Virus genome (UHGV): UHGV-0159506
Origin: a virus
Strand: one strand, 5' to 3'
DNA length: 17,827 nucleotides
Shown here piece after piece: positions 1,593-5,141 of this stretch. How positions within the stretch are numbered: position 1 is the stretch's first letter; every line of letters begins with the position of its first letter. Position numbers and translations under genes: made by a program. Below the pieces are notes generated by a model. It saw only the letters and a list, made by a program, of their open reading frames with translations. It had not been told where the DNA came from and did no database searches.

Positions 1593-2294
1593 TTATTCTG
1601 ATTCTCGCTCAAAAAACGAGCTGATAAGGGGAAGCCAATCCTCTGACACTTCGCGAGGTCGCGGTTTGCCGTGGAAAAAGATTATTCGGCAGTCTTTTGG
1701 TAATGCCCCATTCCCCCTGGAGTAACGCGCGCTCGCATATTTCGAACCAGGTTCCACAACATCGGCCTTGTAACTTACAAACCATCCTGGATACAGATCC
1801 TGAAATGCTGGTGTATCATCGCCCATAACCTTTCGTAAGAACCCCTGGTCACCCCAGCACTCAGTAGTGACACAACGAGAAATCCAACCTTCCGGATCTT
1901 GCCAGAATGAACTCCAGATATGCGCTTTAACACTATTTGGTATCCACAGGGCACCGCTGCCACGATATTGTGGATGGTAAAAATCCCTAAGCATGGTGAA
2001 GCTGGTTGGTGGATTCTCAAGGATTGGGCGTATATCACCGGCAATAACCGTGTCCAAATCCAGATAGAACAGATCATCGGTTATATCCGGTCGGAACAAC
2101 TCGATTTTCGCCCACCAGCCACGGCACTTTTGCCACTGGTTGATCAATGGGACAACTTTGACGCCAGGTACATGTAAACGCTTCAGGTCTGTCAGGCAAA
2201 TAATTTCATAGCCTTTTGGCAGTTGATTAACCAGCCACTGCACATCGGAAGCGTTATAGTCACCACCAGAGCGAAAAACTAAAGCAATCTTCAT
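1593..2294 (-). CDS. putative GT-A-type (DXD) glycosyltransferase-like protein
   Basis: Track ORF of 233 aa. Its ATG overlaps the upstream stop as ATGA (translational coupling). It has a hydrophobic-DxD motif ([12 protein letters not shown]) and WWAKIELF, reminiscent of GT8/GT-A nucleotide-sugar transferases. Family assignment is tentative. Confidence 0.5.
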
Positions 2295-2965
2295 GCTGCA
2301 CCATCACCTTTCACTTTCATCAATGTCAGGTTTCCGCAAAATACGGCACCAGTGTCGATATACTGCTGATTCCAGAATGTCTTCGGGCTTTTCACCGGAG
2401 TGTGACCAAAGATAAAACGATCTGCGCCCGAAATTTCGCCACCAATATCATCCATCGAATCACTGATACGCTCGCGCGCCCAGACAACGTTGAAAAGCGG
2501 CACCTCCTTACCGAATTGGTATTCATTATCCGGATAGTCGGCATGGGCTATAACGATAGTTTCTTGCCCGGTGTTCAACTCAATGATATAGGGCAGACGC
2601 TTTACCAGCTCCACCAGCGCCCAGGCTAATATTTCCTGATCAGTGTCCAGCATGAAGAACCATTGTCCGCCATTCATTAGCCAGTTATTCACGTTGCCAT
2701 CTGGACTTAACGCATCAATCATCAGCCGCTCATGGTTCCCCATCACTGCCCTGAACCAGGGCATCTGCAATAGTTCCAGACATTCGACATTTTCAGTACC
2801 GCGATCGATAAGGTCGCCGACCGATATCAGTAAATCCTGCGCCGGGTCAAAATCCACACGATGGAGTTCGGACATCAGTCTGGTGTAGCAACCATGCAGA
2901 TCACCAACAACCCAGACATTCCTGTATTTGGTACCGTCGATACGGTGATAAATTGTGGGTGCCAT
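2291..2965 (-). CDS. Ser/Thr protein phosphatase, PPP family (lambda phosphatase-like metallophosphoesterase)
   Basis: Contains the metallophosphatase motifs GDLHGC, GDLIDRG and GNHE, with overall co-linearity to lambda PPase as I recall it ([18 protein letters not shown] ... [14 protein letters not shown]). The track ORF starts at 2983, but the ATG at 2963-2965 overlaps the upstream TGA (TGATG) and matches the lambda PPase N-terminus better. Confidence 0.85.
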
Positions 2966-3591
2966 CATGTATTCTTCAGCCATTCTTTAAGAGTCATCTG
3001 CGGAATACCTCCCATTTTCCCGCATGAAACAACGTCAATCTGTTCACGCGCAGACTGGAATAACAAAGGCAGGTGACTTAGATTTTTTGGCGTGCCGCCG
3101 GAGTGAACGCGTGGTTCTTGTGTAGCGTCAACGCCCACCAGGGCGACATGTTTGAATCCGATATGGAAAGCCAGGTTCAGAGCACCATATGCACTATTGC
3201 CGCTGGCAATTTCATTCTCATCTTCGCAAAGGCCGAAATGTGCGGACCAGCGCCACGCCCACCACTCGGGAGAATTCGTATTTTTTGGCTCCATGCCGCG
3301 TTCAGCCACACGACGGAAGCACAGAACGCCATCTCTGACTTCACGTTCTTTAACATCGGGTAGTGCCATGCAATAACAAACACCACGGCGACGGCGGCCA
3401 CGACCAACGCGCCGCATATTGTCTGGCGATGGATCAAGTGTGAAAAAATAAGAAGCGCGGTTCAGCCAGTCGATGGCCCCATTGACCGCTATAATCGGCA
3501 CTCCGCGCGGCGCAACAAAGTTTGCGGCGCTTGGGCCACTGCCGACGATAATAACGCGATCACTGCCTCTAAATTTATTCTTGGGAAACAT
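2965..3591 (-). CDS. DUF115/MptE-like, GT42 (CstII sialyltransferase)-like Rossmann protein, paralog B
   Basis: Track ORF of 208 aa with ATG start. It has an N-terminal VIIVGSGPS motif, IIAVNGA, and [11 protein letters not shown], a pattern shared with CstII/Maf-type CMP-sugar transferases (GNGPS ... SGIDFY). It is a paralog of the adjacent upstream ORF. Confidence 0.5.
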
Positions 3592-4151
3592 TGAATTGCA
3601 CTGCTCCTACTTGCATTCAAAATATGTAAATCTGCGTGTTTTTTGCGGGTATCCAGGAACTGCTGTTGCCATTTTGAAATAGACACCTGCGTTGGATTCC
3701 GTAGGGCTTGAGGGTGTGCTCCATGCCAATGAAGGCCGTTTTGCAGAGAACAGTCATAGCCGACTAATACAACTACTTCAGCCCCTGATTCAGCCGCCAG
3801 ACTGATAGTCTGCGCGCCGCTATTAACCCCTTCAGCCGGTCCACAATATCGCCTGTACTCCAACGAAAATGATTTCGCCGCCGCCAGGTTGGCTGTCACT
3901 TTGCGGAATCTCCCTCCCGGTATGGTGGATCCGTATTGCTTCCACCATGACAAATCACCGGCGTATAAGGCATAAATGTCATCGAACATCTGCCAGGAAT
4001 TGTTAACCGCGATGATTGAACAGCCAGTTTTTTCTATAGCAGCACAGTCCTCACGAGTGAGTGACGGACCGCTACCGACACAAAAAACAGTCCTAGTCGC
4101 CCTGGGTGGTATGTTCATTCTCAGCTGCAAATTCAGCCTCCAGGCGAGCAT
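3489..4151 (-). CDS. DUF115/MptE-like, GT42-like Rossmann protein, paralog A
   Basis: Track ORF of 220 aa with motifs VFCVGSGPS, IIAVNNS and GAEVVVLVGYD. Its 3' end overlaps paralog B by 103 nt in another frame. Start is either the ATG at 4151 or the internal ATG giving MNIPP. Confidence 0.5.
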   Translation of the reverse strand: MLAWRLNLQLRMNIPPRATRTVFCVGSGPSLTREDCAAIEKTGCSIIAVNNSWQMFDDIYALYAGDLSWWKQYGSTIPGGRFRKVTANLAAAKSFSLEYRRYCGPAEGVNSGAQTISLAAESGAEVVVLVGYDCSLQNGLHWHGAHPQALRNPTQVSISKWQQQFLDTRKKHADLHILNASRSSAIQCFPRINLEAVIALLSSAVAQAPQTLLRRAECRL

Positions 4152-4290
4152 TCATTTCAGCGATTACCGGGTCCACTACAGCATCTGCTTCCTGTTCATT
4201 ACGCGGCATGATCGATGCCAGCGATTCATAATTAGCCTTGGATGACACAATTATTCTCCCGATGTTAATGTGCGCTATATCAAAGAGCAC
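4093..4290 (-). CDS. small hypothetical ORF (doubtful)
   Basis: Track ORF of 65 aa with a GTG start and no obvious SD. It overlaps the start of paralog A. It may not be real; the interval could instead be a regulatory gap. Confidence 0.25.
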   Translation of the reverse strand: MLFDIAHINIGRIIVSSKANYESLASIMPRNEQEADAVVDPVIAEMNARLEAEFAAENEHTTQGD

Positions 4291-4314
4291 ATATGCACTA
4301 ATTAATTTATTATT

Positions 4315-4893
4315 TTAAGCAGCATACAACCACTTGTCGCCGTTCAATACATGCTCAATAGCCTCACCCTTTTTAAGGCTTATGTATTCCAGGATGGCGG
4401 TTATCGCTTGTTCTGCACCATACGCAAGAACGACGTAGTAACCTTCCTCTCTAAGCCTGCGCATCCAGGCGATCTGCTCTTTCGTCGGGGCTTTACCATT
4501 TGGTTCTTTAAGCTCAATTCGCATGCCGTGATAAATACCGCATGCTTTATCGAGACTCATGTCCGGATAACCTTTTTTCTGCCCTTCAGCCTTCATTTTC
4601 CCGGCGGTTGCTTTTGAACGTTTCCCTCCGTTAGGCGTTGCATGCAACAGCTCATAGATGTCAGGGTGCTTGCGTTCGAAGTAATCAAAAATGAAAACCT
4701 GCTCGAAGTGCTCGCAATTTCCGTCGCGCAGGTCTGGGTTCTTTGCCAGTGCTGCAAGTGCCTTCGCATGTGGAGAAACTTCTTTTACCGGCGCAAGCGA
4801 TAAGAATGGATCCTTTTTGGTTTTTGGCCTGGACCGCCCCTTATTTCGACGCTCACTAAAAGCCTGAAACTCTTCCTCAGTAAAGCGCAACAT
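4315..4893 (-). CDS. VRR-NUC domain nuclease (PD-(D/E)XK superfamily)
   Basis: Track ORF of 192 aa with ATG start 2 nt after the upstream stop. It carries the signature HATPNGGKRSKATAGKMKAEGQKKGYPD plus a downstream E/K, typical of VRR-NUC. Confidence 0.7.
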   Translation of the reverse strand: MLRFTEEEFQAFSERRNKGRSRPKTKKDPFLSLAPVKEVSPHAKALAALAKNPDLRDGNCEHFEQVFIFDYFERKHPDIYELLHATPNGGKRSKATAGKMKAEGQKKGYPDMSLDKACGIYHGMRIELKEPNGKAPTKEQIAWMRRLREEGYYVVLAYGAEQAITAILEYISLKKGEAIEHVLNGDKWLYAA

Positions 4894-4895
4894 AA

Positions 4896-5141
4896 TCAGT
4901 CAAATCCTGCCGGTCGCATGCCATATTTACGCTGTTTTGCGGCCTGCTCTTCCCTGTGCCATTGCGCACATTCAGCGTCACAATAAATGCCTGATTCAAT
5001 CGATTCATTGCAGTAACGACACTTCCCTGTAAATACCTGGCTCACGACCTGTGCCTGCTTTCTGATGTTATCGATGGCCATGTCTTTGAGAGCTTCTAAC
5101 TGATTCATGCTCAGCTCTGCATCATCAACACGTTCTGCCAA
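4896..5141 (-). CDS. small zinc-ribbon protein (C-x2-C ... C-x3-C)
   Basis: Track ORF of 81 aa with four Cys in CRYCNESIESGIYCDAEC. It is the first gene of the minus-strand operon. Start codon and exact coordinates are uncertain by about 1 nt. Confidence 0.5.
   Translation of the reverse strand: MAERVDDAELSMNQLEALKDMAIDNIRKQAQVVSQVFTGKCRYCNESIESGIYCDAECAQWHREEQAAKQRKYGMRPAGFD

Follow-up and report, generated by a model that had tools for sequence, protein, structure and literature searches.

The pmgL–pmgQ block analysed here appears, from sequence and fold comparisons, to have as its functional core a three-enzyme sugar-adding cassette, formed by PmgO, PmgP and PmgQ, that is mobile and recurs in many unrelated phages. 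With moderate confidence, we propose that the block comprises two C1-repressed lytic units, the second of which would carry this cassette, building a short glycan. The genes are known already, and the function of the cassette is uncharacterised in the literature, as the first-pass annotation of this DNA had suggested for its activity. By its sequence, the stretch is the gene block already sequenced in phage P1, and the window (the whole 17,827-nucleotide stretch of virus genome UHGV-0159506) is a P1-like element. Megablast aligned the block to P1, RCS47 and P7 with 98.4-99.1% identity and 100% query coverage, and its features correspond one to one to those of the P1 record AF234172 (98.8% over 4001 nt), from which the names of the seven minus-strand ORFs between 1593 and 5141 are taken (Table 1). 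Genes, order, operators and promoters are all like those of the pmgL-pmgQ region (hdmA-D, ppp) of P1 and P7 (AF234172 and AF503408), with no substantive difference. RefSeq product names in P1, RCS47 and P7 include glycosyltransferase, alpha-2,3-sialyltransferase, metallophosphoesterase or NinI-like phosphatase, and VRR-NUC, and P7 names the VRR-NUC gene Holliday junction resolvase.

Table 1. Features of the block in window coordinates (window coordinate = L001 coordinate - 1601)
Feature	Position	Strand	Description
Op82/O26	5199..5215	+	C1 operator; position of annotated P1 O26
pmgL	4896..5141	-	DksA/TraR-like zinc-finger protein, 81 aa; phrog_54, P1 annotation
pmgM	4315..4893	-	VRR-NUC nuclease, 192 aa; 4QBL, phrog_5702
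Promoter	4312..4340	-	Sigma-70-like, GCGACA-17-TAAAAT; consensus scan; just upstream of Op83
Op83 (Oppp)	4292..4308	+	Putative C1 operator; annotated in P1 AF234172 and P7
pmgN	4093..4248	-	Small protein, 51 aa from GTG at 4248
pmgO	3489..4151	-	MptE/Maf/GT42-fold transferase-like protein, 220 aa
pmgP	2965..3591	-	pmgO paralog, 208 aa; overlaps pmgO 3' end by 103 nt
ppp	2291..2983	-	Lambda-type Ser/Thr (PPP-family) phosphatase, 230 aa; 1G5B
pmgQ	1593..2294	-	GT8-like retaining GT-A glycosyltransferase, 233 aa; DxD at D79/D81
Op86a (OpmgRa)	1575..1591	-	C1 operator; P1 annotation and C1 consensus scan
Hairpin	1539..1566	-	Intrinsic-terminator-like, then UUUUUUAUU; ends pmgN-pmgQ unit
Op86b (OpmgRb)	1526..1542	+	C1 operator; P1 annotation and C1 consensus scan

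At the level of organisation, the ORFs are closely packed, as first described, with an ATGA overlap between ppp and pmgQ and both ATGA and TGATG in the pmgP/ppp junction (ACATGATGG); pmgL and pmgM meet at TGAttATG, and pmgN overlaps pmgO by 26-59 nt. The coupling claimed for all seven ORFs breaks between pmgM and pmgN, which are separated by an uncoupled gap of 24-66 nt holding the annotated Op83 and a promoter-like site. Because this internal operator and promoter lie between pmgM and pmgN, the block would be organised as two C1-controlled transcription units, pmgL-pmgM and pmgN-pmgQ, and not as one. The repressor-controlled operon of the first-pass annotation is thus retained as regards its C1 operator and abandoned as a single seven-gene unit. 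That operator is P1 Op82/O26 (ATTGCACTAATAATTTT), which carries two mismatches to the C1 consensus ATTGCTCTAATAAATTT and is common to the divergent promoters of pmgL and gene 26. A scan of the window allowing three mismatches found five matches to this consensus where 0.07 were expected by chance. Op83 (TATGCACTAATTAATTT) has four mismatches and lies beyond the reach of the scan; its presumed role as the operator heading the pmgN-pmgQ unit is taken from the P1 annotation, which also places PpmgN there, with a -35 hexamer at 4342-4347 and a -10 hexamer at 4321-4326, about 5-10 bp from those of the scanned promoter. At the distal end, the terminator noted at 1540-1565 corresponds to a hairpin and U-tract of -13.8 kcal/mol (z = -4.65; none of 200 shuffled sequences folds as stably), which is absent from the output of the consensus terminator scan and is flanked by Op86a and Op86b, the former belonging to the next unit, pmgR-pmgS. 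Several gene starts can be placed differently: pmgO likely starts at M12 (4118) and ppp at M6 or M7 (2968/2965), overlapping the pmgP stop, and pmgL has an alternative ATG at 5108. The longest form of pmgN is an ORF of 65 aa (4093-4290), and the start annotated in P1 is preceded by a GGGAGA ribosome-binding site.

The first unit would supply two products in lytic growth, a small protein with a zinc finger and a junction nuclease of the VRR-NUC type. PmgL, initially called a zinc-ribbon protein, has a DksA-like zinc finger (phrog_54, E 1.6e-12) and is non-essential (PMC10695390). PmgM, as anticipated, is a VRR-NUC nuclease: it aligns with the solved structure 4QBL (phmmer, E 3.5e-17) through the GYPD...ELK nuclease motif (GYPD...IELK), placing it among the VRR-NUC domains with a PD-(D/E)xK motif, and it also matches phrog_5702, with a Pfam VRR_NUC score of 21.2 bits, just under the 23.8 cut-off. 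From these matches PmgM is probably a Holliday-junction resolvase, an ordinary member of the phage VRR-NUC resolvases that adjoins the cassette in P1 only.

Two enzymes of the proposed glycosylation cassette in the second unit, PmgO and PmgP, are distant paralogs of the MptE/Maf/GT42 fold. Their profiles align with each other over 163 columns (hhalign, 98.1% probability, E 1.3e-13), and the global library, clustered at 50% identity, gave 615 clusters. Comparison of PmgO with known structures returned Maf, MptE, CstI and GT29 enzymes, with a Maf glycosyltransferase as the best match, so that fold similarity to solved members assigns the pair to the MptE-like/DUF115 group. The scores of the P1 proteins themselves against Pfam MptE-like/DUF115 (PF01973) are 22.0 bits for PmgO and 20.9 for PmgP, under the gathering cut-off of 34.6, which is cleared by the homologs P0051 (44.6 bits) and P0258 (44.1 bits); precomputed PF01973 hits are present in many others. 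The GSGPS and GxD motifs that had suggested a DUF115/GT42-like pair occur in both proteins and are conserved across both families, where the nucleotide-binding motifs of GT42 and Maf enzymes, an N-terminal GxGPS loop and (T/N)SG...GxD, are invariant. The PmgO profile aligns both nucleotide-binding motifs of CstII, (G/S)GPSL and SG...G(Y/I)D (residues 3-63 and 123-158), at an E of about 0.2. The catalytic base of CstII is His188, and the family alignments contain conserved histidines at H141/H143 of PmgO and H173 of PmgP. Like PmgO and PmgP, E. coli WaaZ hits that Pfam model (29.6 bits); hhalign against one WaaZ sequence gives a weak match (8-16% probability). P0051, a natural PmgO-PmgP fusion, has precomputed hits to both MptE-like and WaaZ_KDO_III, both faint; the name of the latter Pfam family ties WaaZ to Kdo III. 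The pair shares the MptE-like fold with Maf flagellin glycosyltransferases, the GT42 sialyltransferases CstI and CstII, and WaaZ, but differs from them in being much shorter (about 200 aa), encoded as overlapping paralogs and under the Pfam cut-off.

The third enzyme, PmgQ, had been noted as a DXD-bearing GT-A-like protein, and it can now be described as GT8-like in the CAZy sense: the fold is GT-A, the nearest structures are GT8 enzymes, and the DxD metal site is invariant throughout the PmgQ family. The profile match to Gat1 has an E of 9.6e-7, and no Pfam family, Glyco_transf_8 included, was matched at E <= 0.1. Compared with the retaining GT8 enzymes LgtC, glycogenin, Gat1, GlyE and the WaaJ/WaaO class, PmgQ is a minimal 233-aa domain lacking that Pfam hit.

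The association of these enzymes extends far beyond P1. In about 25 of 30 loci, PmgQ has a PmgO/PmgP-family gene as its neighbour; these loci are found in Enterobacterales, Pseudomonas, Cellvibrionales, Rhizobiales, Caulobacterales, Acetobacterales, Methylophilaceae, Flavobacteriales and Gemmatimonadota, a span from Enterobacterales to Bacteroidota. All hosts are diderm bacteria, a Gram-negative restriction that may be partly a sampling effect because the search patterns came from proteobacterial sequences. Besides the O-P fusion there are two P-Q fusions, a Q-P-methyltransferase and a methyltransferase-P, and the cassettes include glycan-tailoring genes for SAM methyltransferases, an FkbM methyltransferase, a hexapeptide sugar acetyltransferase and an extra GT-A enzyme. 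Locus L003 encodes a KdsB equivalog (CMP-Kdo synthetase; 270 bits, cut-off 155) 3.5 kb downstream of the cassette, with several genes in between and in this one lineage only. These partners bear on a choice that the first-pass annotation had left between sugar transfer and an MptE-like kinase: because they are methyltransferases, an acetyltransferase, an extra GT-A, KdsB and GT8 fusions, sugar transfer is favoured over the kinase. It is accordingly improbable that the paralogs are pyrophosphokinases of the MptE or TPK type with a small-molecule substrate and that Ppp is the phosphatase matching them, a scheme that is also at odds with Maf as the best structural match and with Ppp not being a conserved partner.

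Ppp is indeed a PP-lambda-type phosphatase, as called (residues 11-229 against lambda phosphatase 1G5B, E 1.5e-94; PF00149 Metallophos, 59.3 bits over a cut-off of 21.5, within the PPP family), and an ordinary relative of lambda NinI that adjoins the cassette in P1 only. It is present in 3 of the 30 loci, all P1-like, and in no non-P1 cassette, and in phage D6 it stands alone in an unrelated context. Because of this distribution, Ppp would be functionally apart from the sugar enzymes; ppp appears to be a P1-lineage insertion in a variable slot between pmgP and pmgQ, and both Ppp and PmgM are presumably passengers functionally unrelated to them. This disagrees with the earlier suggestion of a host-takeover or anti-defence function, if it is taken to mean one operon whose sugar transfer, protein dephosphorylation and DNA cleavage work together, a reading that we consider quite unlikely. 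In P1 the genes lie side by side on one strand with translational coupling between some of them, and a PmgM homolog precedes the cassette in L003, all of which would suit it; yet PmgL, PmgM and PmgN are missing from nearly all non-P1 cassettes (pmgN is confined to the P1-like L090 and L091), the block is split by the internal operator and promoter, and none of the seven proteins matched PADLOC families, a library of defence rather than anti-defence proteins. Moreover, phages with single genes knocked out form plaques without defect, and their anti-restriction is unchanged (PMC9024508; PMC10695390).

The same genetic data largely refute the original annotation of these products as essential morphogenetic (head-assembly) proteins, which is very improbable despite the notes in the P1 and P7 GenBank records and the location among tail and head genes. 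In addition to the normal plating of the deletions, CRISPRi found all genes non-essential except pmgN, a result in conflict with the deletion data (PMC10695390; PMC9024508), the proteins are absent from the P1 virion proteome (PMC10695390; PMC9024508), and their folds are enzymatic, not structural.

A mechanism can thus be proposed in which the second unit, pmgN-pmgO-pmgP-ppp-pmgQ, would be expressed in lytic growth as a glycosylation cassette with ppp inserted. PmgO and PmgP would act as a pair, probably a heteromer. To our knowledge, all characterised glycosyltransferases of the MptE/Maf/GT42 fold draw on CMP-activated 2-keto-3-deoxy sugar acids, and since they do, we infer a CMP-ulosonic donor for PmgO and PmgP as well; CMP-Kdo is, as far as we know, the sole such donor made by all Gram-negative hosts. 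PmgQ, as a metal-dependent, DxD-bearing GT8-type retaining enzyme, would add a hexose from a UDP-sugar. Jointly, the three enzymes would produce a short glycan, probably with Kdo or a related sugar, which related cassettes may further methylate or acetylate.

As for the acceptor, a protein of the virion or the surface is a plausible though tentative candidate, a glycolipid of the envelope, such as the LPS inner core, is possible, and something else accounts for the rest. Mycobacteriophages and chloroviruses glycosylate their own virion proteins, and the best explanation with the acceptor fixed, itself tentative, is that the glycan is placed on progeny capsid or tail proteins, shielding virions or altering adsorption. 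In four unrelated HK97-like prophages the cassette comes right after the major capsid gene, either between it and head-tail connector or head-completion genes (L100, L113, L115) or directly 3' of it (L102). The remaining phage and prophage loci also lie in late or structural operons, the cassette being found between lysis genes and terminase, lysis genes first (L007, L114, L116), after lysis genes (L006) or after terminase (L101), and in P1 C1 represses the cassette and the late promoter LPpmgL lies upstream of it. In agreement with a protein acceptor, the top structural matches modify proteins (Maf on flagellin; GlyE, glycogenin, Gat1), the P7 record carries a 'head morphogenesis' label, and in L094-L098 and L005 the genes flank Big_1/inverse-autotransporter adhesin genes, surface adhesins of a type glycosylated in other bacteria. 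Against it, the cassette moves between phages whose capsids fall into families with no Pfam relationship (Phage_capsid, Phage_cap_E, Phage_capsid_4, Major_capside and P1 gp23), making a conserved protein acceptor hard to see, and we know of no precedent for Kdo-type glycosylation of proteins. Furthermore, an LC-MS/MS study of the P1 virion contains no report of a glycan, and plating of the knockouts is normal (PMC9024508); the literature reports none on virions or DNA of P1 or on the LPS of its host.

Remodelling of the envelope, in which the enzymes would work at the inner membrane, either on the LPS inner core in the manner of WaaZ and the core transferases of GT8 or on a different glycan linked to lipid, is somewhat unlikely. 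It would change or truncate the receptor of P1 or of other phages, excluding superinfection or keeping progeny off debris; E. coli outer core is reportedly truncated on WaaZ overexpression. The nearest characterised families act on LPS or LOS (WaaZ, CstII, LgtC and the Waa GT8 enzymes), every cassette host is diderm, one phage carries KdsB, PmgO and PmgP are basic like WaaZ (median pI 8.3-8.8 versus 9.25), and the spread across phage types is easier to reconcile with an acceptor from the host than with one from the phage. However, the genes are repressed in the P1 lysogen, LPS already at the surface is beyond cytoplasmic enzymes within one lytic cycle, inner-core structures vary among host phyla, the cassette lies outside the usual lysogenic-conversion positions, and no LPS change upon P1 infection has been reported.

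Sets of several glycosyltransferases borne by phages have parallels elsewhere. The virion-glycosylation genes of mycobacteriophages (Che8; Freeman et al. 2023, cited in PMC11256854), which are located near the right genome end, resemble the P1 cassette in this respect and offer a precedent for glycosylation of the virion. Phage DNA-glycosylation clusters are likewise multi-glycosyltransferase sets in which Kdo and other LPS sugars serve as donors, 5hmC requires a methyltransferase and a TET-type enzyme, and the Kdo- and heptose-adding enzymes are GT-B (bioRxiv 10.1101/2023.12.21.572611); in contrast, the P1 block has neither the methyltransferase and TET-type pair nor GT-B enzymes. Both kinds of set sometimes include sugar-nucleotide synthesis genes.

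As judged from its sequence, the window derives from a P1-type phage or plasmid: megablast of 1400-5400 gave full-length matches to RCS47 (99.1%), P1 (98.8%) and P7 (98.4%). Its coordinates were mapped onto the annotated P1 record (L001, AF234172; window coordinate = L001 coordinate - 1601), and the resulting gene map is given in the table. In P7, pmgN, pmgO, pmgP and pmgQ are named hdmA, hdmB, hdmC and hdmD, while ppp remains ppp, and RefSeq already names P1 genes of the block as glycosyltransferase, alpha-2,3-sialyltransferase, metallophosphoesterase and VRR-NUC protein. The start/stop overlaps reported earlier are present (ATGA at ppp/pmgQ and ACATGATGG at pmgP/ppp), together with longer overlaps of 26-59 nt at pmgN/pmgO and 103 nt at pmgO/pmgP; pmgL and pmgM are spaced by 2 nt. 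The annotated starts of pmgO and ppp are probably too far upstream. The homologs of PmgO start only at about residue 15-20, which makes M12 at 4118 the likely pmgO start, and since the alignment of Ppp with lambda phosphatase begins at residue 11, its likely start is M6 or M7 (2968/2965), which overlaps the stop codon of pmgP. Single-gene deletions of all seven genes display normal plating and normal anti-restriction, and none of the seven proteins was detected in P1 virions (PMC9024508; PMC10695390). The knockouts show that the placeholder label of 'putative morphogenetic function', carried by the block since 2004 in one of the most used phages, is wrong. Neither do they support the anti-defence role put forward in the first-pass annotation; a PADLOC search of the seven proteins, whose library holds defence and not anti-defence proteins, gave no match.

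Coordinates of the genes of the block and of its internal operator in the window
Feature	Coordinates	Strand	Remarks
pmgL	4896-5141	minus	P1 record
pmgM	4315-4893	minus	P1 record
Op83, annotated C1 operator	4292-4308		in the pmgM/pmgN gap; 4 mismatches to consensus
pmgN	4093-4248	minus	P1 record; start at 4290 in P7
pmgO	3489-4151	minus	P1 record
pmgP	2965-3591	minus	P1 record
ppp	2291-2983	minus	P1 record
pmgQ	1593-2294	minus	P1 record

At the protein level, the initial assignments were all right. The zinc-ribbon protein, PmgL, is a DksA/TraR-like zinc finger (phrog_54, E 1.6e-12); the VRR-NUC nuclease, PmgM, matches the solved 4QBL over a stretch spanning the nuclease motif (E 3.5e-17); and the PP-lambda-type phosphatase, Ppp, matches lambda phosphatase 1G5B (E 1.5e-94). 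Pairwise similarity between PmgO and PmgP is marginal (E 0.003), and their paralogy was confirmed by hhalign of the family profiles, which align over 163 columns with 98.1% probability and E 1.3e-13 when the PmgO alignment is built without the fusion protein P0051, whose inclusion gives an artefact. The proposed kinship with GT42 and GT8/GT-A enzymes was also upheld by HMM comparison: the alignment of the PmgO profile with CstII takes in both nucleotide-binding motifs of the latter, and a search with the PmgQ family profile recovers Gat1 at E 9.6e-7, the invariant DxD being part of the alignment. It is important to remark that by Pfam's own cut-offs the P1 proteins fall outside MptE-like, VRR_NUC and every GT family, and that the basis of these assignments is given by fold, by profiles and by those homologs whose scores exceed the cut-offs. 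When PDB sequences were searched with the single sequences of PmgO, PmgP and PmgQ or with the PmgP profile, no significant match was obtained, and a BFVD fold search returned only nameless phage proteins and MptE-like or DUF115 labels. Alignment of the PmgO or PmgP family with a single WaaZ sequence by hhalign was weak (8-16% probability), and the WaaZ link is therefore confined to shared Pfam matches and a 'faint' precomputed family.

The genes of the block were known already; what is new is the recognition of pmgO-pmgP-pmgQ as a conserved, mobile, fusion-linked cassette of three enzymes for a predicted glycosylation, with putative product and target. No characterisation of these three genes, of the cassette or of the MptE-like proteins and WaaZ-like genes of phages was found in literature searches, which also yielded none of virion glycosylation in phages of Gram-negative bacteria. 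Relatives of the three proteins were collected with their genomic surroundings, and every ORF was scored with the family profiles. About 25 of the 30 loci have a PmgO/PmgP-family gene adjoining a PmgQ gene; three of those that do not are contigs that end too soon. The hosts of the collected loci, all diderm bacteria, comprise Enterobacterales, Pseudomonas, Zhongshania, Microbulbifer, Brevundimonas, Commensalibacter, Methylophilaceae, Rhizobiales, the flavobacterium Sinomicrobium and one Gemmatimonadota. This diversity came from a scan of genome contigs, the scan of viral contigs having found only P1-identical copies; in public data the PmgP family comprises about 615 clusters at 50% identity. 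Natural fusions join PmgO to PmgP (P0051), PmgP to PmgQ (P0221, P0288), PmgQ to PmgP and a methyltransferase (P0269), and a methyltransferase to PmgP (P0309). The slot between pmgP and pmgQ, filled by ppp in P1-likes, is variable and holds a SAM methyltransferase in L100, L106 and L114, a hexapeptide sugar acetyltransferase in L110 and L111 and a further GT-A in L101, and in L107 an FkbM methyltransferase follows the cassette. A distant P1 relative (L003, metagenome contig SRR14843460_11017) encodes a KdsB equivalog, that is, a CMP-Kdo synthetase (TIGR00466, 270 bits against a cut-off of 155), at 12658-13425 (+), 3.5 kb downstream of pmgO-pmgP-pmgQ; a HAD_PNKP-like gene follows it. Such partners are those expected around glycan-building enzymes, unlike the surroundings of a pyrophosphokinase.

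The folds, the fusions and the methyltransferase, acetyltransferase, GT-A and KdsB partners thus bear out sugar transfer and give it a better foundation. Cooperation of the sugar enzymes with the phosphatase and the nuclease did not hold up: among the 30 cassette loci Ppp is found only in the three P1-like ones, PmgM lies beside the cassette only in P1-likes and L003, and PmgL and PmgN are confined to P1-likes. In the P1 relative D6, ppp occupies a completely different neighbourhood. Taken as a whole, the first-pass interpretation is partly supported.

The overlap of pmgO and pmgP (3489-3591, minus strand) contains the slippery heptamers A_AAT_TTA and T_TTC_CCA in the pmgO frame, where a -1 slip would join PmgO to PmgP from Lys6 onward and mimic the fusion P0051. 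In nine of ten loci pmgP lies in the -1 frame of pmgO; programmed frameshifting at A_AAT_TTA is not claimed, the heptamer not being conserved in the other loci.

Beyond the observed folds, paralogy, conserved triad, fusions and tailoring partners, we infer that PmgO and PmgP act as a pair; the natural fusions would predict that the enzymes form a complex. To our knowledge, every characterised glycosyltransferase of the MptE/Maf/GT42 fold uses a CMP-activated 2-keto-3-deoxy sugar acid, and CMP-Kdo is the sole donor of this kind that we know to be common to all cassette hosts. The donor of PmgO and PmgP would be such a sugar acid, with CMP-Kdo as the candidate, and one phage encodes a KdsB itself. 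A hexose from a UDP-sugar would be added by PmgQ, with metal bound at its DxD site.

The genomic position of the cassette bears on when these enzymes are made and on what they may modify. In HK97-like prophages it is located between the major capsid and the head-tail connector/head-completion genes (L100, L113, L115) or just after the capsid gene (L102), and in lambdoid prophages after the lysis genes and before terminase (L007, L114, L116); it follows the lysis genes in L006 and the large terminase gene in L101. The P1 cassette, which is controlled by C1, lies among tail/head genes and has a late promoter upstream. These positions, together with the control in P1, thus point to expression in the lytic cycle in phages, and they are away from the usual sites of lysogenic-conversion genes. 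The repeated proximity to capsid genes, an expression confined to the lytic cycle and the fact that Maf, GlyE, glycogenin and Gat1 are protein glycosyltransferases suggest that the acceptor may be a protein. The acceptor may also be an envelope glycolipid, for instance the LPS inner core, which would be consistent with the relatives WaaZ, CstII and LgtC, the exclusively diderm hosts, the portability of the cassette, which moves between phages whose capsids are unrelated, and the basic pI of the two paralogs; however, cytoplasmic enzymes made only in the lytic cycle cannot alter LPS already at the surface. Hypermodification of DNA is unlikely, because P1 has no 5hmC pathway, the described Kdo- and heptose-adding DNA enzymes are GT-B (bioRxiv 10.1101/2023.12.21.572611) and anti-restriction is unaltered in the knockouts.

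Some enterobacterial chromosomes carry the three genes dispersed, with an inverse-autotransporter adhesin gene and lysis-gene remnants in their midst. In MAGs of Pseudescherichia and further Enterobacteriaceae (L094-L098, about 3300-9300) a split cassette surrounds a 1178-aa inverse-autotransporter (Big_1) adhesin gene, and that of Serratia plymuthica (L005, 2600-10700) adjoins two small Big_1 genes, holin/lysozyme remnants and a fimbrial operon. That the cassette is a widespread and portable phage machine of Gram-negative bacteria, which uses host CMP-Kdo (or a related CMP-ulosonic acid) and UDP-hexose to glycosylate proteins of surface adhesins or of progeny virions, is an idea to which we give rather low odds. 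We know of no earlier virion-glycosylation system in phages of Gram-negative hosts, nor of Kdo-type protein glycosylation, and it would, if true, be the first of both. A glycan on virions or envelope would be relevant, in Gram-negative hosts, to receptor masking, superinfection exclusion and the immunogenicity of phages, and a Kdo-type glycan on virions or surface proteins would sharply raise the significance of the cassette; if none is found, the genes of the block stay ordinary accessory genes. The three-gene glycosyltransferase cassette, which is conserved, mobile and frequently fused, constitutes an experimentally tractable system in P1.

At the regulation level, the operator-like site at 5199-5215 corresponds to the C1 operator Op82/O26, with 2 mismatches to the 17-bp consensus, and the window contains 5 matches to this consensus against 0.07 expected by chance. 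A bivalent operator is located at 15050-15077, where a perfect match (ATTGCTCTAATAAATTT) overlaps a second one on the opposite strand. The terminator proposed for the end of the block is real as a structure: a simple consensus scan missed it, and direct folding confirmed a hairpin at 1539-1566 (-13.8 kcal/mol, z = -4.65) followed by a U-tract. This hairpin, placed exactly between the two Op86 operators that belong to the next unit, includes the -10 annotated for the PpmgR promoter; therefore, upstream termination and pmgR repression and initiation share about 65 bp (1526-1591). The description of the block as a single seven-gene operon, otherwise confirmed, overlooked a gap of 24-66 nt between pmgM and pmgN that contains Op83 and, according to the P1/P7 annotation and a consensus scan, a promoter. 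The block is therefore divided into two C1-controlled units, pmgL-pmgM and pmgN-pmgQ. As no terminator separates them, transcription from the upstream sigma-70 and late promoters may read through. By CRISPRi, pmgN (4093-4290) is the only essential gene of the seven, against the deletion result (PMC10695390). Simple polarity does not explain this, because all downstream genes are non-essential; the CRISPRi target site adjoins Op83 and the internal promoter.
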